Origin: Eledone cirrhosa | Lineage: Eukaryota | Reading direction: 5' to 3' | NCBI GenBank assembly: GCA_964016885.1 | Contig: OZ024747.1 | Span: forward strand, 1,984,001 to 2,048,000 | Length of the DNA stretch: 64,000 nt | Shown here: positions 6,345 through 61,026 of the stretch, one piece after another | Numbering within the stretch: the first letter of the stretch is position 1 | How the letters are laid out: each line of letters starts with the position of its first letter | The notes under the pieces: model-generated | Told to the model about the DNA's origin: nothing | Seen by the model: the letters and a program-made list of their open reading frames with translations, nothing else | Databases searched by the model: none | Position numbers and translations under genes: made by a program

Positions 6345-6460
6345 CATTTGGAACTAGCTGTTTAAACCTCAAGAACTCAGCTATTGGGGTCTCAACGCTT
6401 TATAATATAACGATACTCTACTACCCCAAGTATTGAGTACTTTGTTGAGTGATGGTTCAA
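6345..6460 (+). mobile_element. Diverged fragment of the 60261 PLE-like family
   Basis: actctactaccccaagtattgagtacttt is identical to sequence in the 60377-60410 segment. Confidence 0.55.
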
Positions 6461-7569
6461 ATTGAATCCATATGATGATGATGATACATGTATATGATGT
6501 GTGTGTGAGGGGTTTCTGTACATTTTCCATTTACCAAATTTCACTTACAATGTCAACACAAGTCTATAGCGGAACATGACTAAAGTGCTATAGAGTATAA
6601 TTAAACCTGAAACCAGAGGGATGTGATGCAAACTTTATAGCATAGCAGCATGGCCGTGTCTGTGTCTACTGTTAATGTAGAATCTAACAGTGTTTACTGA
6701 TGCATATCACTAATTCTGTTGACATTTTTTCATATTTTATATGAATTTGGAATTTGGATATGCAATTAGTTTAGGGAATAACAACAATTATATAATTTAA
6801 TTAATCTAATGAAATATTTCTTTTGTACTCATGTGATCATATCTCAGAGAGCTTTCCATTTAGAGAAGTGGAATTTGGGGGGAAAAACAAAGGATCAATC
6901 AGTATTCTCAGCAAATGTAATATTCTTTTATAGAATTTTAAATTAATATATTGAATCAATATTTACGGATCTCTGAATTAGTAAGGAGCGAATAATTCTG
7001 AAATTTCTACTGATGAGATAATAGGGTGCTGCACGGTTAGTAAAGGGTCAGTGAATTATGTGTTGTGATCATGGCCAAATCATGTTTAAAGCTGACTGAG
7101 TTCATCTAACTATTAATAAGAGATAGTAAGAGTTACTTATGCATGCAGCAGTAGTACGGCAAATTTAATGAACATCTTCATGTACTTGGAGTCCTGAATT
7201 TAAAATAGCATTAAAAAAAAAAAAAATTATGCTATGTGGTCGCTCAATCTGTTAAAAATAGCAGCTAGGTTTACTTCAAATCACACACTGTCTGTAAAAA
7301 AAGATATACATTAAATATATTGTAGTCATAGATATGTCCCAGAAAGACATGATGGTCTTGGTTGGAAAGCGTTTGATTACAGTTAACAACCAGCTTAATT
7401 TGAGTTGACTTGAGTATAAGTTATTTATGGAATCACCTTTTCCCCTGATTGTTGTCTACTTTTGGCTATTAGAATCATGTTGTTTTGGTTTAGCCACAGG
7501 GCAGTCCAGGTCAACAACACTTAGGTTCAAAAGCTTGTCTATCCCCATATATTTATATATATATATATA

Positions 7570-7638
7570 ATGAAGGAAGTGTGGTAAGGAACCAGGTGGA
7601 CCATAACACACAAGAGCTCCACCGTTGAGGTTAACATT

Positions 7639-9362: not shown

Positions 9363-9619
9363 GTATTAGGAAAGCATCCAGCTATAGAAAGCAAGCCAGA
9401 AACAGTTCTGTGTGAGCACGGCACAGTCACCTCACCTGACTTGTCTCACAACAGGACAACTCATCTATCCCAGGCTAGCATGGAACATTAAACAGTGATG
9501 GTAATGATGATATATATATATTTGTATATATAATAAAATGTTGTAGTTTGCTTGAAGCATAGTATATAATATATACAATGCAGAACAATAGGAACATTAT
9601 CCACTGAAAGTTCCTTAAA

Positions 9620-9650
9620 TCCTGATGAAGGGTCCCGAAATATGGGACAG
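9620..9650 (+). ncRNA. Degenerate minimal hammerhead ribozyme motif (PLE-type)
   Basis: CTGATGA-aGGGtCCC-GAAA; no valid NUH site evident. Confidence 0.4.
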
Positions 9651-14332: not shown

Positions 14333-17038
14333 ATCATCACCGTTTTACGTCCGTTCTTCCACGCTAGCATGGGTTAGACGGGTTGTCCTGTTGTGGGCAG
14401 TGTCTGGTTGGCTGACCATGCCTTGCTCATACAGGAACTGATCTGGCTTGATTTCTACAGCTGGATGCCCTTCCTAACACCAACCTCATTTAGAGTGAGT
14501 GCTGGGTGCTTTTTCGTGGCGCCTACACGTCCACTTTACAGTGTGGGCTGGGTGCTTTTTTGCCGTGGCACCTCCACGACCACCTTGCGGTAAGGGGGGG
14601 GGGGATGTTGTTTATATGCTTCAGCATGTACCCATGGGAGGTCGGGTACCCTGTATTACTGCGTGCCGCCAGAAGTCACGGTCGTGTGTCATTGACTTTG
14701 AGAGGTGTAGTTGGGTAAGGTCGGCTTTTATCACCTCATCCCAAGTCATCTTGGGTCTCCCCACTCCGCGGTATCCATCAACTTCTAGTGCTCTGCACCT
14801 TTTTATGTAGCTGTCATCCTTCATACGCATCACATGTCCATACCAGCGTAACCGCCTCTCCTGCACACAGCATTTGATTCCTCTTATGCTCAGTCTCTCT
14901 CTCAATTCCTTTATGCTTTGTCGTTCACGTATATTACTGTTACACATCCATCGGAGCATGCAGGCTTCGTTTCTCTCTAATCTACGTAAGTCTTCCACCT
15001 TCAGCGCCCAGGTCTCACTACCATGCAACATCGCTGTTCGGATACACGCATCATACAGTCTGCCTTTCATTCTGAGGGAGAAGCCTTTTGCAGCTAGCAG
15101 TGGTAGTAGTTCCCTAAACTTCTTCCATCCTGTTCTTACCCTAGTTATTGTACTTTCTGAGCACCCACCTCCGTTGCTAATTCGGTCACCTAGGTAGCAG
15201 AAGCTGTCTACTGTTTCTACAGGGCCCTCCCAGAGATTGGTGGTACTTGTTTCCTGTGGCTGTTTGCTTGCTGTTTCAGCACAGCTGCTGCATGTGAATC
15301 CTACATTCTTAATTAAGCTTCCTGAGATCCCGCTACATCTCTTGTGTACCCATTGTTTGCATTTGGGGCAGAGAATGGAGTTCCTACCTACACCTTTCCT
15401 ACATACTGAGCAAGGCCATTTCCCTGAGGGGATCTGGGTTCTGTTTTCTCGTCTACTTATAAGGACCTTAGTCTTTGTCATGTTGACTTTGAGGCCCTTT
15501 CTCTCTAGTCCCTGCTTCCAGGTTTGGAATTTATTCTCTAGTTCTACCATAGATTCAGCTATGAGTGCGAGGTCATCAGCATACAGGAGTTCCCATGGGC
15601 ATCCGGTCTTAAACTCCTCCGTTATTGCCTGCAGGACTATGATGAACAGGAGAGGGCTAAGAACAGAGCCCTGGTGGACCCCAACCTGTACGCTAAATTC
15701 CTCGCTATACTCATTGCTAATCCTAACTTTGCTGACTGCTCCCCTATACATGGCTTGTACCGCTTTCACAAGCCATTCATCTACTCCTAGTTTTCTAAGA
15801 GCCCACCAGATTACTGCACGTGGAACTCTGTCAAAGGCTTTCTCAAGGTCGACAAATGCCAAGTAGAGTGGCTTACTTTTAGCTAGGTACTTTTCCTGTA
15901 ATTGCCTCACAAGGAAGAGGGCATCAGTGGTGCCTTTCCCTGGTACAAATCCAAATTGCATCTCGTCTATATTCACCCGGTCCCTAATCAGCTGTGCTAT
16001 AACTCTTTCTGTTACTTTCATGACCTGGTCCATCAACTTTATACCTCTATAGTTTCCTCTATCTAGTGCATCGCCTTTACCTTTGTAGCAGTTGACAATG
16101 ATGCTACTGCACCAATCTTTTGGTATGGCCCCCTCTAGTATTACCTGGTTAACGATACGTGTGGTTATAGTGTGACCTACAGACCCAGATGCCTTCAGCA
16201 TCTCGGCAGCTATACCCGATGGACCGGTTGCCTTCCCTATCTTCATATCTCTGATTGCCTTACTTACTACGCTGCCGCTGACTTGTACTGCTGGTCCCTC
16301 TATAGGGTCTACGTGGGGTAGGGTCTCTTCTTCCCATGCATTCTCCTCATTTAGTAATCTATCATAATGACTCTTCCATGCATCTTTCTTCTCAGCACTT
16401 GTGAGGGCAAGCTCACCTTTATCATTCCGGATACACTTCTCTCCAATGACATCACAACTATCTCTGACACACTGCCTCGCAATCTTGAATACCTCCTGTT
16501 TCTGGTCCTCACATTGTAAAACATGCTTGAATTTTCTATCCTCTGCTTCCCTCCTAGCTAAGTATACTTGTCGCCTAGCTTCCCTCTTGGTCTCTATGTA
16601 ATGTACCCTGCTCCCCCCGTTCTTCCATTCTTTCCATGCCTGTCTCTTGGCCTTGACTGCTTCATCTACCTTATTGTTCCACCACCAAGTCACTCTCCTC
16701 CTGCTTGAGGTCTTACTCCAGCCACAAACCTCATCCGTCGCCTCTAGTAAGTTATTTTTTAGGAACTTCCAGTTCTCTTCTACGTTAAATGTCTCTATCT
16801 GTTCTTCTTTACTGTCGTAGGCGTTGAGTAAAATATCTTTAAATCTGTTACTGGTTGAGGGGACTTTCAGCTTCCAGATCTTTCTTCTGCAGGTTGGCCT
16901 CTGTTTCAGGACTCGTCTAGTTCTGACCGTGAGGTCGCTGACAACTAAGCTATGTTGGGATGTACATTCCTCACTAGGGAAGGCTTTTGTGTTTACGACC
17001 GTCCATCTGTCACGTCCTCTGATGAGGATAAAATCTAA
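14333..17038 (-). mobile_element. RTE-clade LINE family A, 5'-truncated, with long uninterrupted ORF
   Basis: End of APE domain (LDFILIR...SQH), RT motifs (NYRGIKL, QFGF, FVDLEKAFD, GVHQGSVLSPLLF, YADD), Cys-rich insert, about 290-bp 3' UTR with hairpin and GAT tail. Confidence 0.95.
14621..17038 (-). CDS. RTE endonuclease/reverse transcriptase ORF (N-terminally truncated, about 806 codons)
   Basis: The 690-aa track ORF reads in frame for a further 115 codons up to the truncation at 17038. Confidence 0.85.
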   Translation of the reverse strand, partial: LDFILIRGRDRWTVVNTKAFPSEECTSQHSLVVSDLTVRTRRVLKQRPTCRRKIWKLKVPSTSNRFKDILLNAYDSKEEQIETFNVEENWKFLKNNLLEATDEVCGWSKTSSRRRVTWWWNNKVDEAVKAKRQAWKEWKNGGSRVHYIETKREARRQVYLARREAEDRKFKHVLQCEDQKQEVFKIARQCVRDSCDVIGEKCIRNDKGELALTSAEKKDAWKSHYDRLLNEENAWEEETLPHVDPIEGPAVQVSGSVVSKAIRDMKIGKATGPSGIAAEMLKASGSVGHTITTRIVNQVILEGAIPKDWCSSIIVNCYKGKGDALDRGNYRGIKLMDQVMKVTERVIAQLIRDRVNIDEMQFGFVPGKGTTDALFLVRQLQEKYLAKSKPLYLAFVDLEKAFDRVPRAVIWWALRKLGVDEWLVKAVQAMYRGAVSKVRISNEYSEEFSVQVGVHQGSVLSPLLFIIVLQAITEEFKTGCPWELLYADDLALIAESMVELENKFQTWKQGLERKGLKVNMTKTKVLISRRENRTQIPSGKWPCSVCRKGVGRNSILCPKCKQWVHKRCSGISGSLIKNVGFTCSSCAETASKQPQETSTTNLWEGPVETVDSFCYLGDRISNGGGCSESTITRVRTGWKKFRELLPLLAAKGFSLRMKGRLYDACIRTAMLHGSETWALKVEDLRRLERNEACMLRWMCNSNIRERQSIKELRERLSIRGIKCCVQERRLRWYGHVMRMKDDSYIKRCRALEVDGYRGVGRPKMTWDEVIKADLTQLHLSKSMTHDRDFWRHAVIQGTRPPMGTC

Positions 17039-17147
17039 AATCTATATATATATATATATATATATCATCATCATCATAAAATCTAATATCTATATATATA
17101 TATATCATCATCATCATAAAATCTAATATCTATATATATATATATAT

Positions 17148-21626: not shown

Positions 21627-22366
21627 GTATATATATATGCAGCATGTGTATATATATATATATATATGCATGTGTATATATATATATATATGCATATGTG
21701 TGTGTATATAAATAACAAGTTGCAGTCTGATTAGTAAAAATGCATCTGTATAATATGGTTTTAGATATTGTATCTGACTTGGTGTGTGTGTGTGTGTGAG
21801 GGGGGGGGGGTAAAAGAGGAGAGAAAAAGGAGAATTATCTCAAGTTTTATTCAATTTCAATTTTCTCATTTATTTTATTTTGTTTTTGTTTTTTTAATCA
21901 AGTTGGGTATTTTTAAATCATGTTAGGTATTAGAGGGGCTAAACATGATATGAAATTAATCTAAAATACAATTTGTGAGTGTAAATATAAAAAATATAAG
22001 TGTATATATACATAATGTATAATGTACATTACTGTTTTTATGTGTTTCTATAAATTGGTTGGAATATATATATATGCAATAATCTCTTTTTTTTTTTATT
22101 AAAAAAAAAAGATGATTTGTTTAGAGGAATTTTTCAAGATATGATTAGCAAAATTGATCTTCGAGAAGAAATAATAATTCTAAGGGGAAAAAATATTGAT
22201 ATGAGTAAAAAGAAAAAAAAAGTCAATTTGTTGAAAATAATACGTGGAAACATATTAAACCTCCATAACTTGAAACAAATCAGTTTTTTTTTAAAAAAAA
22301 ATCATACACAAATGACAAAAGATGTGTGAACAATTTATATACATATATATATGCCTATATACATAT

Positions 22367-22544
22367 ATAACAAAGGAATTGTGGTAAGGAACCAGAGGGA
22401 CCATAACGCACCAGAGTACTCAATACTTAGGGTAGTAGAGTGGGAAATAGGAAAAAAGTATGACCCCGACGGCAGAGCTCAAAAGTCTAGAAATAGCCGT
22501 CGAAACGGTTTGAGCTCTGCCGTCGGGGTCATACTTTTTCCTAT
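22367..22544 (-). mobile_element. PLE-like module with fold-back hairpin (arms 22447-22483 and 22509-22544)
   Basis: About 36-bp inverted arms; homologous to 60261-60455 in the opposite orientation; sits in TA-rich microsatellite. Confidence 0.7.
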
Positions 22545-22553
22545 ATACATATA

Positions 22554-22745: not shown

Positions 22746-23883
22746 CATCATCATCATCATCATCATCATTTTACGTCCGCTTTTCCCTGCTTGCAAGGGT
22801 GGGACGGGTCTTATTCAGCACAGCATCTCTCCACTCGTCACGGTCCCTCGTCATCTCCACCGTGAGCTTCAATGATCTGAGGTCTGTTCTCACCACCTCC
22901 GCCCATGTTTTTCGTGGTCTACCTCTACCACGTCTTCCTTCAACTGGCATTTCCTGGCACTTCTTCACCCATCGGTCATCCTCCATGCGCATCACATGTC
23001 CATACCACCTCAGTCTCCTCTCCCGTACACTACATTCTATCCCTCTCAGACACAGTTTCTCTCTCAACACATTTAAGCTGGGTCGTTCACGCACATTTAC
23101 ACTGCACATCCAACGGAGCATGCTTGCCTCATTTCTCTCCAGCCGTCGCATATCTTCTGCGGTAGCTGCCCATGTCTCACTACCATGCAGCATCGCGCTC
23201 CTCACACAGGCATCATACAACCGGCCTTTCGTACGCAGGGAGAAACCCTTCTTCGTCAACAGAGGAAGCAGCTCCCTAAACTTCTTCCAACCCGTCCTTA
23301 TTCTAGATACTATGGCCTCGGAACACCCTCCTCCCATGCTAATCTGATCTCCTAGGTACCGGAAGCTATCCACCACTTCTATAGCGCCCTCTCGCATTTG
23401 AAAAATGTGTCTATCAGTGCGACTTCTACTGTCTAATTTCCCTGTACATCTACTGCATACATATTTCTCCCTACCTGTTAGTTTGCCTGCTATCCCGCTA
23501 CATCTCTTGTGTACCCAGGACCTACATTGTGTGCATTTTATAGAATTTATGCCAGTTCCTTTTCTGCATATCGAACATGGCCATTTCCCTGACGGAATCA
23601 GGGTTTTGTCCTCTTTTCTACTCATCAACACTTTTGTCTTAGCTAGATTTACTCTCAGTCCTCTTGCTTCCAACTGCTGTTTCCATAGCCGGAATTTATT
23701 CTCTAGCTCCTCTACTGATTCTGCCATAAGAGCCAGATCGTCAGCATAGAGAAGTTCCCATGGACAGCCAGTCTTAAACTCCTCTGTTATGGCTTGGAGG
23801 ACTATAATGAACAAGAGCGGGCTGAGGACCGAACCCTGATGTACTCCTACTTGTATCTGGAATTCCTCACTAAACTCCATTCC
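22746..23883 (-). mobile_element. RTE LINE family B, 5'-truncated, open ORF ending at the (GAT)n tail
   Basis: GVHQGSVLSPLLF, YADD, RRLRWYGHVMRM, ...[13 protein letters not shown]; essentially no 3' UTR. Confidence 0.93.
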
Positions 23884-23889
23884 TATGTA

Positions 23890-23922
<33 letters not shown>

Positions 23923-23935
23923 GTATGTATATATA

Positions 23936-24122
23936 TTTCGTTTCTGAATTTGTTTAGCAAGATTCTTTATCTGAAAACGTGTGTTGAAACCGATATTGTT
24001 ATACTTTGGGAGGGTCATGTTGCCAATAAGAAACACACGCACCAGTTGCTTTCACTTCAATTTATTATAATAAATTTATATATGTATATATAAATATATA
24101 AATGTATAAATATATATATGTA

Positions 24123-24155
<33 letters not shown>

Positions 24156-24500
24156 GTATGTATATATATTTCGTTTCTGAATTTGTTTAGCAAGATTCTT
24201 TATCTGAAAACGTGTGTTGAAACCGATATTGTTATACTTTGGGAGGGTCATGTTGCCAATAAGAAACACACGCACCAGTTGCTTTCACTTCAATTTATTA
24301 TAATAAATTTATAAATTTAGGAATTTATAAATTTCCGGTTGGGTGGTTGGTTCCACAACCAGATGGTTGTTTATATATTGTCAAAGTTCTTTCGTCACGC
24401 ATTTTGTGACCTCTTCAGTGACTGGGGATTCTTTTCTTTGTTTTTGTGCCTCTCCTTTGTTCTGACCTACGCCATCTTGTTTCTGTGTGTGTTTCACATC
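23936..24500 (-). mobile_element. PLE-like terminal repeat (family P1), partially duplicated in tandem
   Basis: 23936-24080 repeated at 24168-24312; hammerhead at 24380-24422; ORF start [28 protein letters not shown]. Confidence 0.7.
24380..24422 (-). ncRNA. Minimal type I hammerhead ribozyme
   Basis: GTCA-CTGAAGA-g-GTCAC(loop)GTGAC-GAAAG-aa-CTT-TGAC. Confidence 0.7.
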
Positions 24501-24506
24501 TTGTTT

Positions 24507-26186
24507 CACAGTTGATTAGGGACCGGGTGAAACTAGATGAGATTCAATTTGGGTTTGTACCAGGAAGAGGCACCACTGATGCCCTCTCCCTTGTGAGGCA
24601 GTTACAGGAAAAGTGCCTAGCTAAAAGTAAGCCACTCTACCTGGCATTTGTAGATCTCGAGAAAGCCCTTGACAGAGTTCCACGTGCTGTAATCTGGTGG
24701 GCTCTTAGAAAACTAGGAGTAGATGAATGGCTTGCGAAAGCGGTACAAGCCATGTATAGGGGAGCAGTCAGCAAAGTTAGGATTAGCAATGAGTATAGCG
24801 AGGAATTTAGCGTACAGGTTGGTGTCCACCAGGGCTCTGTTCTTAGCCCTCTCCTGTTCATCATAGTCCTGCAGGCAATAACGGAGGAGTTTAAGACCGG
24901 ATGCCCATAGGAACTCCTGTATGCTGATAATCTCGCGCTTATAGCTGAATCTATGGTAGAACTAGAGAAGAAATTCCAAACCTGGAAGCAGGGACTAAAA
25001 AGAAAGGGTCTCAAAGAAAGTCAACATGACAAAGACTAAGGTCCTTGTAAGTAGACGAGAAAACAGAACCCAGATCCCTCAGGGAAATGGCCTTGCTCAG
25101 TATGTAGGAAAGGTGTAGGTAGGAACTCTATTCTCTGCCCCAAATGCAAACAATGGGTACACAAGAGATGTAGCGGGATCTCAGGAAGCTTAATTAAGAA
25201 TGTAGGCTTCACATGCAGCAGCTGTGCTGGGACAGCAAGCAGCAAACAGCCACAGAAAACAAGTACCACCAATCTCTGGGAGGGCTCTGTAGAAACAGTA
25301 GACAGCTTCTGCTACCTAGGTGACCGAATTAGCAGCGAGGGTGGGTGTTCAGAAAGTACAATAACTAGGGTAAGAACGGGATGTAAGAAGTTCAGGGAAC
25401 TACTGCCACTTGCTAGCTGCAAAAGGCTTCTCCCTCAAAATGAAAGGCAGACTGTATGCTGCGTCTATCCGAACAGCAATGTTACATGGTAGTGAGACCT
25501 GGGCGCTGAAGGTGGAAGGCTTACCTAGATTAGAGAGAAACGAAGCCTGCATGCTCCGATGGATGTGTAATAGTAATATACACGAACGACAAAGCATAAA
25601 TGAATTGAGAGAGAGACTGAGCATAAGAGGAATCAAATGCTGTGTGCAGGAGAGGCGGTTGCGTTGGTATGGACATGTGATGCGTATGAAGGATGACAGC
25701 TGCATAAAAAGGTGCAGAGCAGTAGAAGTCGATTGAAACTGCGGAGCGGGGAGACCCAAGAAGACCGGGGATGAGGTGATAAAAGCCGACCTTACCCAAT
25801 TACACCAAAGGCGATGACACACGACCGTGACCTCTGGCGTCACGCAGTAATACAGAGTACCCGACCTCCCATGGGTACAAGCTGAAGCATATAGACAATA
25901 TGCCCCCACACCCTCCCACTGCAAGGTGGTCGTGGAGGTGCCACAGCAAAAAAGCACCCAGCCCACACTGTAAAGTGGACGTGTAGGTGCCACGAAAAAG
26001 CACCCAGCACTCACTGTAAATGAGGTTGGTGTTAGGAAGGGCATCCAGCTGTAGAAATCAAACCAAAATCAGTTCCTGTATGAGCAAGGCATGGTCAGCC
26101 GACCAGACACTGCCTACAACAGGACAACCCGTCTAACCCATGCTAGCATGGAAGAACGGACGTAAAATGGTGATGATGATGATGAT
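24507..26186 (+). mobile_element. RTE family A copy, 5'-truncated, with stops and frameshifts
   Basis: QFGFVPGRGTTDAL, GVHQGSVLSPLLF, TAG at 24908, mutated YADN; full 3' UTR. Confidence 0.93.
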
Positions 26187-39399: not shown

Positions 39400-42300
39400 G
39401 TTTGGTGGGCCGACAGTTCTAGTAGAATACATAGGTGGACCGACAGTTCTAGTAGAAGACATTGGTGGGCCGACAGTTCTAGTAGAAGACTTGGTGGGCC
39501 GACAGTTCTAGTAGAAGACATTGGTGGGCCGACAGTTCTAGTAGAAGACATTGGTGGGCCGACAGTTCTAGTAGAAGACATTGGTGGGCCGACAGTTCTA
39601 GTAGAAGACATTGGTGGACCGACACTTCTGGTAGAAGACATTGGTGGACCGACAGTTCTAGTAGAATACATAGGTGGACCGACAGTTCTAGTAGAAGACT
39701 TGGTGGGCCGACAGTTCTAGTAGAAGACATTGGTGGGCCGACAGTTCTAGTAGAAGACATTGGTGGACCGACAGTTCTAGTGAAAGACATTGGTGGACCG
39801 ACACTTCTGGTAGAAGACATTGGTGGACCGACAGTTCTAGTAGAATACATAGGTGGACCGACAGTTCTAGTAGAAGACATTGGTGGACCGACAGTTCTAG
39901 TAGAATACATAGGTGGACCGACAGTTCTAGTAGAAGGCCTTGGTGGACCGGCAGTTCTAGTAGAAGACATTGGTGGACCGACAGTTCTAGTAGAAGACAT
40001 TGGTGGACCGACAGTTCTAGTGAAAGACATTGGTGGACCGACAGTTCTAGTAGAAGACATTGGTGGGCCGACAGTTCTAGTAGAAGACATTGGTGGACCG
40101 ACAGTTCTAGTAGAAGACATTGGTGGACCGACAGTTCTAGTAGAATACATAGGTGGACCGACAGTTCTAGTAGAAGGCCTTGGTGGACCGACAGTTCTAG
40201 TAGAAGACATTGGTGGACCGACAGTTCTAGTAGAATACATAGGTGGACCGACAGTTCTAGTAGAAGACATTGGTGGACCAACAGTTCTAGTAGAAGGCCT
40301 TGGTGGACCGACAGTTCTAGTAGAATACATAGTTGGACCGACAGTTCTAGTAGAAGACATTGGTGGGCCGACAGTTCTAGTAGAAGACATCGGTGGACCG
40401 ACAGTTCTAGTAGAAGACATTGGTGGGCCGACAGTTCTAGTAGAAGACATTGGTGGACCGACAGTTCTAGTAGAAGACATTGGTGGACCAACAGTTCTAG
40501 TAGAAGACATTGGTGGGCCGGCAGTTCTAGTAGAAGACATTGGTGGGCCGACAGTTCTAGTAGCATACATAGGTGGACCGACAGTTCTAGTAGAAGACAT
40601 TGGTGGGCCGACAGTTCTAGTAGAAGACATTGGTGGACCGACAGTTCTAGTAGAAGACATTGGTGGGCCGACAGTTCTAGTAGAAGACATCGGTGGACCG
40701 ACAGTTCTAGTAGAATACATAGGTGGACCGACACTTCTAGTAGAAGACATCGGTGGACCGACAGTTCTAGTAGAAGACATAGGTGGACCGACAGTTCTAG
40801 TGAAAGACATTGGTGAACCGACAGTTCTAGTAGAAGACATTGGTGGGCCGACAGTTCTAGTAGAAGACATTGGTGGACCGACAGTTCTAGTAGAAGACAT
40901 TGGTGGGCCGACAGTTCTAGTAGAAGACATCGGTGGACCGACAGTTCTAGTAGAATACATAGGTGGACCGACACTTCTAGTAGAAGACATCGGTGGACCG
41001 ACAGTTCTAGTAGAAGACATAGGTGGACCGACAGTTCTAGTGAAAGACATTGGTGGACCGACAGTTCTAGTAGAAGACATTGGTGGGCCGACAGTTCTAG
41101 TAGAAGACATCGGTGGACCGACAGTTCTAGTAGAATACATAGGTGGACCGACACTTCTAGTAGAAGACATCGGTGGACCGACAGTTCTAGTAGAAGACAT
41201 CGGTGGACCGACAGTTCTAGTGAAAGACATTGGTGGACCGACAGTTCTAGTAGAATACATAGGTGGACCGACAGTTCTAGTAGAAGACATTGGTGGACTG
41301 ACAGTTCTAGTAGAAGACATTGGTGGACCAACAGTTCTAGTAGAAGACATTGGTGGACCGACAGTTCTAGTAGAAGACATCGGTGGACCGACAGTTCTAG
41401 TAGAAGACATTGGTGGACTGACAGTTCTAGTAGAATACATAGGTGGACCGACAGTTCTAGTAGAAGGCCTTGGTGGACCGACAGTTCTAGTAGAAGACAT
41501 TGGTGGACCGACAGTTCTAGTAGAAGACATCGGTGGACCGACAGTTCTAGTAGAAGACATTGGTGGACCAACAGTTCTAGTAGAAGACATTGGTGGACCG
41601 ACAGTTCTAGTAGAAGGCATTGGTGGACCGACAGTTCTAGTAGAAGGCATTGGTGGGCCGACAGTTCTAGTAGAAGACATTGGTGGGCCGACAGTTCTAG
41701 TAGAAGACATTGGTGGACCGACAGTTCTAGTAGAAGACATTGGTGGACCGACAGTTCTAGTAGAAGACATTGGTGGGCCGACAGTTCTAGTAGAAGACAT
41801 CGGTGGACCGACAGTTCTAGTAGAAGACATTGGTGGGCCGATAGTTCTAGTAGAAGACATTGGTGGACCGACAGTTCTAGTAGAAGACATTGGTGGGCCG
41901 ACAGTTCTAGTAGAAGACATTGGTGGGCCGACAGTTCTAGTAGAATACATAGGTGGACCGACAGTTTTAGTAGAAGACATTGGTGGGCCGACAGTTCTAG
42001 TAGAAGACATTGGTGGACCGACAGTTCTAGTAGAAGACATTGTTGGGCCGACAGTTCTAGTAGAAGACATCGGTGGACCGATAGTTCTAGTAGAATACAT
42101 AGGTGGACCGACACTTCTAGTAGAAGACATCGGTGGACCGACAGTTCTAGTAGAAGACATAGGTGGACCGACAGTTCTAGTGAAAGACATTGGTGAACCG
42201 ACAGTTCTAGTAGAAGACATTGGTGGGCCGACAGTTCTAGTAGAAGACATTGGTGGACCGACAGTTCTAGTAGAAGACATTGGTGGGCCGACAGTTCTAG

Positions 42301-42882
42301 TAGAAGACATCGGTGGGCCGACAGTTCTAGTAGAATACATAGGTGGACCGACACTTCTAGTAGAAGACATCGGTGGACCGACAGTTCTAGTAGAAGACAT
42401 AGGTGGACCGACAGTTCTAGTAGAATACATAGGTGGACCGACACTTCTAGTAGAAGACATTGGTGGACCGACAGTTCTAGTAGAAGACATCGGTGGACTG
42501 ACAGTTCTAGTGAAAGACATTGGTGGACCGACAGTTCTAGTAGAATACATAGGTGGACCGACAGTTCTAGTAGAAGGCCTTGGTGGACCGACAGTTCTAG
42601 TAGAAGACATTGGTGGACCGACAGTTCTAGTAGAAGACATCGGTGGACCGACAGTTCTAGTAGAAGACATCGGTGGACCAACAGTTCTAGTAGAAGACAT
42701 TGGTGGACCGACAGTTCTAGTAGAAGGCATTGGTGGACCGACAGTTCTAGTAGAAGGCATTGGTGGACCGACAGTTCTAGTAGAAGGCATTGGTGGACCG
42801 ATAATTCTAGTAGAAGGCATTGGTGGACCGACAGTTCTAGTAGAAGGCATTGGTGGACCGATAATTCTAGTAGAAGACATCA
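39400..42882. repeat. 30-bp minisatellite, about 116 copies
   Basis: Unit TAGAAGACATTGGTGGACCGACAGTTCTAG; two 29-bp units near 39490 and 39700. Confidence 0.98.
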
Positions 42883-43334
42883 AAGGTTCAGTGGGAAGGG
42901 ATTAAAACATAAACCACATAATTGTAAAGGAAACTTCTTAAATCCAATACTGTGCCTGAAACAATGGTGTAATACTAACACATTTCTAATTATATTTTTC
43001 ATCCTTATGGAGTCGATAAAATGAAGTACCAGTAATACACTGGGGAAATTGCTGGCCTTGTGCCAAAAGTAGAAACAATTATATTTCTAATAAAATACAC
43101 TATAAAGGTCAGTTGAAAAGTAACAATGCAGTTACTAATAAGAAGAGTTGAAATTAATGCATGCAAGATTTCAAGGCTCTAACATCACTCCTTCATAGTC
43201 AGCCTAGGAACTATTCAGCTGACCTTTATACCAATATGTTACAATTAGTTGACCTTTATACCAATATGTTACAATTAGTTTGAACATAATCCAAAATTTT
43301 GAGGGATTTAATAAAATAACTAACATAGATGACA

Positions 43335-59880: not shown

Positions 59881-60115
59881 TTGTTTGTAAAGTGGAATAC
59901 TTTGTGAAGAAGATATTAATGCTGTTAATACGGTTGACCCCTCCTCATCCAATATGTAAAGTTGGATTGATCCGGATTTGAACACAGCAAAGAAACCACA
60001 TTTCTTAATGCATTCAATCAAACGCTTTGGCTATTTTAAACCACCTTATATATATATATATATGGTGGCTGCCAACTTGTTTTCGAGTACATACATATAT
60101 ATACATACATATATA

Positions 60116-60197
<82 letters not shown>

Positions 60198-60260
60198 TAT
60201 ATATATATATACACACATATATATATATATATATACACACATATATATATATATATATAT

Positions 60261-60455
60261 ATAGGAGTAAGTAAGACCCCGACGGCTGAGCTGAAGCCGT
60301 TTCGACGGCTAATTCTGTACAGAATTAGCCGTCGAAACGGCTTCAGCTCAGCCGTCGGGGTCTTACTTACTCCTATTACCCACTCTACTACCCCAAGTAT
60401 TGAGTACTTTGGTGCGTTATGGTCCACCTGGTTCCTTACCACTTTTCCTTCGCTA
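60261..60455 (+). mobile_element. PLE-like module containing a 116-bp perfect palindrome (60261-60376)
   Basis: 58-bp arms are exact reverse complements centred on TGT|ACA; followed by a conserved tail with ATG at 60419 (MVHLVPYH); (TA)n flanks. Confidence 0.75.
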
Positions 60456-60568
60456 TATATATATATATACATACATATATATATATACACATATATATAT
60501 ATATATATATACATATATACATACATATATATATACATATATACATATAAACCTACATATATATATAT

Positions 60569-60902
60569 CATTCATCATTTCATTTCATTTTACGTCCGCT
60601 TTTTCCCTGCTTGCAAGGGTGGGATGGGAACTGATGCTGGCTTGATTTCTACAGCTGGATGCCCTTCCTAACACCAACCTCATTTACAGTGAGTGCTGGG
60701 TGCTTTTTTGCTGTGGCACCTCCACAACCACTTTACAGTGGAATGATAAGGACCTCAGTCCCTATCATCTCATTTCTACAGCTGAGTAAACTGGAGCAAT
60801 GTGAAATAAAGTGTCTTGCTCAAGGAAACAACATCACCCGGTCTGAGAATTGAACTCACAACCTTTCGATTGCAAGCCCAATGCTCTAACCACTAAGCCA
60901 CA
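60569..60902 (-). mobile_element. CORE-type SINE S2 with RTE-B terminus
   Basis: Same chimeric tail as 17148-17447. Confidence 0.88.
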
Positions 60903-60956: not shown

Positions 60957-61026
60957 AACATACATACATATATACATACATACATATATATATATACATG
61001 GTGGTGGGTGCCAACTCGTTTTCGAG

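Follow-up and report, generated by a model that had tools for sequence, protein, structure and literature searches.

A perfect palindrome in Eledone cirrhosa as a probable head-to-head pair of run-off cDNAs from a Penelope-like retrotransposon

Introduction

Among the closest described relatives of the family studied here are the Penelope-like elements (PLEs) of the Hydra clade. According to excerpts of Craig et al. 2021 (PMC8557442), these share with our family the RW(K/R) and DKT motifs, a CxCx5C linker, a C-terminal GIY-YIG, a (TA)n target, partial tandems, an inverted truncated copy and a tail at one end. Our family differs from them in its ~3.6-kb unit with a long 3' non-coding part, a tail of 77 nt rather than 30-40, a U3-A8 instead of a canonical hammerhead core, a predominance of 100-200-nt doublets and a fixed 5' wall.

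The protein of the Anolis PLE Poseidon (PAc) nicks and extends both target strands in vitro from two internal RNA sites, as excerpts of Frangieh et al. 2024 (PMC11167929) report. An AT-rich target is common to PAc, which is a predicted dimer, and to the elements described below, as would be two adjacent internal RT start sites bounding a tail and the nicking and extension of both strands. In PAc the start sites are within the ORF, in our family within the 5' leader. The PAc study saw no reads that stop at the ribozyme cut, whereas in the genome analysed here arm ends accumulate both there and at a likely cap; the excerpts do not tie both-strand extension to inverted copies.

Regarding PLE hammerheads, the excerpted text of Cervera and De la Pena 2014 (PMC4209133) describes the type I pLTR fold, long helix II and palindromic loop 3 that we also find, reports the U3-A8 core variant for Cercyon PLEs and motif pairs on opposite strands, and proposes a circular template. 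Our elements differ in a helix III of 5 pairs and a 33-nt insert in helix II that holds a likely start site. Evidence of cleavage in vivo is lacking according to the same text, while the junctions analysed here may give an indirect sign of it.

The Adineta vaga Penelope elements (Arkhipova et al. 2013, PMC3846280, in excerpt) likewise have inverted pLTRs, junction palindromes and pLTRs with TATA and Inr-like motifs; they were explained by antisense self-priming, whereas our data favour two sense-templated cDNAs. In L1 (excerpts of PMC11702581 and PMC3287187), as proposed here, another cDNA is started on the opposite target strand, ends are joined through microhomology and an extra G occurs at complete 5' ends. 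The two L1 cDNAs begin at an internal site set by chance and cover neighbouring stretches of RNA with little overlap (PMC11702581), whereas here the sites are fixed and both cDNAs would copy one and the same stretch, which gives a palindrome.

Already described in these excerpts are truncated copies in inverted orientation, tails at one end only, palindromes at the junctions (PMC3846280), the preference for (TA)n targets and the variant core. The origin of the inverted ends and one-sided tails of PLEs, as well as ribozyme cutting in vivo, are open questions according to the excerpted parts of PMC8557442, PMC4209133 and PMC11167929. In the literature that we searched, which included few subscription papers and no supplementary figures, we found neither the run-off reading, nor the cap signature, nor genomic ends at the cut.

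The palindrome in the window

The window, by which we mean the whole stretch of 64,000 nt analysed, contains at 60261-60376 an exact spacerless palindrome with 58-bp arms inside (TA)n, as a preliminary description had stated. Its centre falls between the GT and the AC of GTAC (60318/60319), its GC content is 52%, both of its flanks are (TA)n-type repeats, and the runner-up among the non-AT spacerless palindromes of the window has arms of just 8 bp. Positions on the element RNA are counted from +1, the A of a YAGT motif present in all subfamilies. The features of the locus and of related fragments are as follows.

60087..60260, no strand: left (TA)n-type target repeat
60261..60318, minus: left arm, without tail, copying the element RNA from +61 to +3
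60317..60320, no strand: self-complementary GTAC, +2 to +5, common to both arms
60317..60453, plus: right arm and tail, a tailed copy, +2 to +138
60326..60361, plus: 3' half of a putative type I hammerhead, within the right arm
60326-60333, plus: helix II 3' strand of this half
60334-60338, plus: GAAAC of this half
60337-60355, plus: helix III of this half, with a palindromic GAGCTC-type loop
60357-60361, plus: helix I 3' strand of this half
60356..60357, plus: predicted ribozyme cut between GUC and G (+41/+42), at other loci of the genome the second of the two places where arms stop
60377..60453, plus: 77-nt tail, which separates the two fixed 3' ends and contains a 13-codon ATG frame at 60419
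60454..60569, no strand: right (TA)n-type target repeat
22363..22545, no strand: older-subfamily pair; the tailed arm stops near +28, the tail-less arm starts at +1
7563..7611, minus: family tail fragment
6351..6459, plus: decayed family fragment

The left arm, whose 3' end is identical to that of the 'short' copies across the genome, appears to be a cDNA from an upstream RT start site, and the right arm plus tail a cDNA from a downstream one; GTAC would be the point at which the two annealed. The right arm reads TAGCCGTC-GAAAC, and its earlier reading as the 3' half of a hammerhead stands. The family tail with an ATG was also recovered, at 60419 and, in minus orientation, around 22400 and 7600, but its frame is only 13 codons long. 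We rejected this ATG as the ORF start, given that a stop follows after 13 codons in every shown copy extending past the tail; the frame that matches full-length relatives starts ~90 nt beyond the tail. Folded alone, the window arm yields z values of about -0.1 to -0.8. The palindrome of the window is probably an inert, dead-end insertion.

Family size and parent element

In the 3.0-Gb assembly, the 24 nt at the centre of the palindrome have 347 exact copies and a 24-mer of the arm has 26,133 exact matches; thousands of insertions of this kind, each with two arms, were left by a Penelope-like retrotransposon, and the window palindrome is one of them. Non-palindromic members, which the preliminary description had suggested looking for, are present (L004, L025, L026) and were the route to longer copies. 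One of these, L063, is a pLTR-ORF-pLTR tandem of ~3.6 kb per unit with interrupted frames that encode RWR, DKT, YRDD, CxCx5C and a C-terminal YIG. The motifs of a single RT plus GIY-YIG ORF are present in L063-L065, and the ORF is interrupted in every element copy examined. The linker reads CNCPDRSSC, and between VIY and YIG there is one C and no cysteine pair.

An unaltered 443-aa piece of the ORF retrieves 32 longer relatives, 30 of them with a DKT-type motif, and the element ORF is collinear with 800-aa relatives. Among the Atlas neighbours, RVT_1 and GIY-YIG occur in 48% and 47% of the members (hit 4). A Pfam scan of two ORF pieces gave no match, and on the relatives Pfam finds GIY-YIG only at sub-threshold level.

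The family shows partial tandems forming pLTRs, 5' truncation, an inverted copy and an optional tail, as expected of Penelope-like (EN+) elements. Regarding the Hydra clade as defined in section 11 of PMC8557442, we found the RWK-type motif (here RWR), DKT, CxCx5C, an endonuclease without CCHH and the (TA)n target, while the canonical hammerhead core is absent. These motifs place the parent among the Penelope-like elements of the Hydra clade, which bears out the PLE origin proposed earlier. Arrays of full-length units, ~3.6-3.7 kb apart, are located at G000:C14:25.09-25.10 Mb and 25.39-25.40 Mb and at C26:23.29 Mb.

A putative hammerhead ribozyme in the pLTR

Judged by its sequence, the pLTR holds a putative type I hammerhead with three helices, the core boxes and an NUH site. 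The native order is CCCC-UUGANAA-G-YU-helix II-UC-GAAAC-helix III-GUC-GGGG, with the cut predicted between GUC and GGGG; helix III has 5 pairs and helix II a 33-nt insert. The preliminary description had anticipated a CUGANGA-GACGGCUA core on the 5' side, and this was not what we found: the core is UUGANAA (U3-A8), followed by G-YU-CGGCUA, and lies ~55 nt upstream. Core position 7 is C, T, G or A, and its neighbours are fixed.

In 17 chosen copies from several subfamilies, 93.8% of the cells are paired and three pairs, all in helix II, are changed on both sides, a covariation that the shuffle control overstates because the 17 copies represent essentially two independent lineages. Free folding gives the three-way junction for L267 and L030, and does not give it for L004 and L138. 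Rfam reports no ribozyme in the window, nor, at E up to 10, in L004, L267 and L030, and a CUGANGA...GAAA scan of the window has 8 matches, none at the palindrome. The hammerhead core is numbered in the conventional way, and YAGT is called initiator-like after the general initiator consensus.

A non-LTR retrozyme was considered and rejected, as it needs whole ribozymes head to tail and we found half ribozymes head to head. Three other observations concern similar motifs. At G000:C3:214146600-214147800 (L297-L299), a 273-bp unit made of the ribozyme 3' half, the tail and the ORF start is repeated 5.7 times; the array resembles a retrozyme but lacks the 5' core. Another family inserted in (TA)n forms an inverted pair around copies of the palindrome's family in L011 (550-1500 and 2000-2500) and contains a small hammerhead-like motif, UUGAUGAAG...CCGAAAC. 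The window also has, at 9610-9650, a minimal hammerhead-like CUGAUGAAGG-GUC-CCGAAA that does not belong to the palindrome's family.

Two fixed 3' ends

All copies end at either of two 3' sites, 77 nt apart, and continue into TA repeats. For a sample of pairs we took the 24-mer matches listed first for contig 1, using 93 out of 100, and obtained 126 arms, of which 22 have no partner and the rest form 52 head-to-head pairs; pairs with both arms stopped at +42 are missed, since the 24-mer from +24 to +47 has to be present in one arm. TATA directly follows 122 of the 126 arms. One tailed (long) and one tail-less (short) arm make up 51 of the 52 pairs, the 52nd (L109) having a diverged long arm. 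Tail-less copies are also found alone.

As short, high-copy inverted repeats with TA flanks, such doublets risk being filed as MITEs or taken for assembly chimeras. We give almost no credence to either: the junctions vary between copies, the ends are asymmetric, there is no uniform internal sequence, and the sequence is that of the pLTR of an RT element. Chimeras are further opposed by hundreds of loci with distinct flanks and by similar joints in the short-read contigs X1-X3 (one sample, perhaps the source sample). The preliminary description had itself named both possibilities without adopting either, and in this it was right.

Highly improbable, too, is self-priming on an antisense template, the account published for head-to-head repeats with junction palindromes of rotifer Penelope (PMC3846280, in excerpt). 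It does not explain why both outer ends lie in (TA)n at two fixed sites, nor does it explain two kinds of sense-strand stops described next, those at the initiator with an extra G and those at the cut.

The first 5' stop

The centres of the pairs are clustered, as had been proposed; the site, however, is not the loop of stem II but the YAGT, located towards the 3' end of the long insert in helix II, with a second class at the cut. In the sample, 109 of the 126 arm 5' ends fall at -6..+41, one at -38 and 16 past -53. This first stop, or wall, is blurred from -3 to +8, and some of the ends scored at -4 are artefacts, because the scoring runs through a native quasi-palindrome. Contig cover in X1 and X3 drops at the wall, which we do not count as support, since summed depth is not a measure of copies and these contigs may derive from the source sample.

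The wall is not a sequence-intrinsic block, since 33 of 38 ORF-bearing copies, some of which are array neighbours and hence not independent, pass it in their upstream pLTR; one stops there, two stop at +41/+42 and two in the tail.

Directly ahead of +1 the native sequence has C or T; where the base there is non-native, it is G in 3,378 cases and A in 661. All 30 of the G loci inspected are junctions. The extra base has no explanation in the partner arm or the flank in 18/30 cases of G and 16/30 of A, so the excess of G stays approximately sixfold; the other 12/30 extra Gs could derive from the partner arm. In the solo copy L203, a single G links the element to (TA)n. An extra G at the 5' ends of full-length L1 and SVA is credited to the cap in the excerpted PMC3287187. 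We infer that +1 may be a capped transcription start inside helix II, accompanied by less frequent starts between -1 and -3. A TATA-like motif at -30 is missing in the old subfamily. A 3' splice site at YAG was rejected, because the ends contain the AG and no upstream exon is attached.

The same stop could instead be a folded or protein-bound barrier that two cDNAs meet solely on their first round of a circular RNA, with no cap involved. Such a barrier would account for the 33 ORF copies that pass the wall without calling for a second template, and poly-A slippage at the wall (L085, L122, L137) is in its favour. It does not predict an extra G at +1 yet A/T at +42, and arms stop on the 5' side of the helix II strand that pairs, not at the 3' foot of that strand; we regard the barrier as decidedly unlikely and retain the capped start as the preferred reading of the wall.

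The second 5' stop

At 319 loci, found with a search pattern that is blind to ends at +43 or later, both arms end within 9 nt of the predicted cut. Inspection by eye of the first 50 shows 26 in which each arm stops precisely at +42 and non-native filler is present, which is mostly extra A/T and consists of a single A/T in 12 of them; the other 24 comprise 13 zero-gap joints (ambiguous because of the CG overlap), 9 with native filler and 2 unclear. One copy, L282, has three segments, every one of which ends at +42. The filler at +42 is unlike that at +1, as expected of an uncapped end. These ends suggest that the ribozyme may cut in vivo at the predicted bond, with the +42 ends coming from self-cleaved RNA.

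One cDNA or two

The preliminary description proposed that a single cDNA snapped back at the ribozyme and copied itself; in this reading the fold lies near helix II, and the second arm is shortened by the endonuclease or by deletion at a later time. Subfamily alleles are indeed nearly always the same in both arms, with 478 same-subfamily pairs versus 6 mixed insertions (7 matches, one of which is two separate insertions), and the window copy has one rare variant in both arms. Some junctions also resemble fold-backs, for example AATTC-loop-GAATT or short templated fillers; since fillers include templated repeats and poly-A, local fold-back does happen during joining. Both arms pass the wall in 5 of the 52 pairs, one arm in 1 and neither in 46, where independence would give 9.8 single passes, so that the arms derive mostly from one RNA or RNA class, which snap-back predicts likewise.

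However, barring large later deletions, a snap-back copy cannot exceed its template or gain a tail from a tail-less strand, and it fits poorly with the fact that either arm may reach further 5'. The tail-less arm does so by at least 8 nt in 11/52 pairs and the tailed arm in 9/52. In L064, L065 and L071 the difference amounts to kilobases: a tailed arm of 190-450 nt adjoins a tail-less copy of 1.7-2.8 kb, an excess of 1.5-2.6 kb, and the joint has no palindrome. Tail-less arms themselves carry the extra G in 10 of the 18 unexplained cases. Solo tail-less copies and the mixed-subfamily pairs, among them L175 and L178, are further points against snap-back, although the mixed pairs could be due to gene conversion. 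We consider snap-back unlikely as the main route, while short snap-back-like fillers do occur, and favour two cDNAs.

Among the first 50 listed pairs of the GTAC subfamily, 17 have a spacerless centre by eye; in the GTCC subfamilies the centres are mostly imperfect. The perfect palindromes in the subfamily of the window copy would be due to GTAC at +2..+5 annealing without a spacer.

Template jumps from the wall to the 5' ORF region occur at 8 loci. In the template-jump copies L270, L272, L275, L276, L281, L282 and L292 (about 1250-1800), a short cDNA stops at the wall or at +42, resumes ~90-220 nt beyond the tail and recopies the 5' region.

Proposed mechanism

We consider it probable that the palindrome consists of paired run-off cDNAs of a Penelope-like RNA, primed on opposite target strands and joined head to head. 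Both strands of the (TA)n target would prime reverse transcription at two fixed internal RNA sites, both cDNAs would run off the 5' end of the RNA to give 5'-truncated copies, and the two cDNA ends would be annealed at GTAC and end-joined into a head-to-head pair. Ends at the wall would reflect capped RNA started inside helix II, and ends at +42 self-cleaved RNA.

The long partial-tandem copies would come from another class of template, either a circle made by the ribozyme or multimeric read-through RNA. This second class has to be assumed, because a capped transcript with a 3' pLTR predicts ORF copies that end at the wall, and 1/38 does. For the same reason, strong-stop followed by a jump via the 41-nt repeat was dropped as the main route to all long copies.

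A more general proposal, to which we give an even chance, is that PLE integration is an obligate two-cDNA reaction carried out by a dimer, which would start cDNAs on both target strands from two fixed sites of the RNA; a capped mRNA begun inside the ribozyme would lead to dead-end strong-stop doublets, and ribozyme-made circles to the long tandems. If true, the two-cDNA reaction would explain inverted ends and one-sided tails in all PLE clades, and thousands of fossil primer-extension products would locate the cap, and the cut made in vivo, with single-base precision. The family makes PLE end formation and in-vivo cutting countable, as its junctions mark the likely cap and the predicted cut, and the same test, the pile-up of inverted-copy ends and extra G versus A, is applicable to any genome rich in PLE copies.

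Other repeats

The 27-nt head of another (TA)n-associated repeat is present three times near the palindrome, at 60064-60090, about 61000-61026 and 61636 onward, set apart by expanded TA/CATA repeats. A tRNA-like Rfam match at 60839-60902 on the minus strand (31.6 bits) is probably a SINE head. LINE-type RT frames, which we take to be RTE-like, lie at 14621-17041 (minus), 22771-24051 (minus) and 24422-24910 (plus), with an open stretch of 806 aa, and account for the long inverted repeats of the window. A long minisatellite with a period of ~21 bp occupies 39479-43024, with several of its frames open. Outside the window, positions 2707-2836 of L267 form a near-perfect AT-rich hairpin of ~120 nt with sub-threshold matches to miRNA families.
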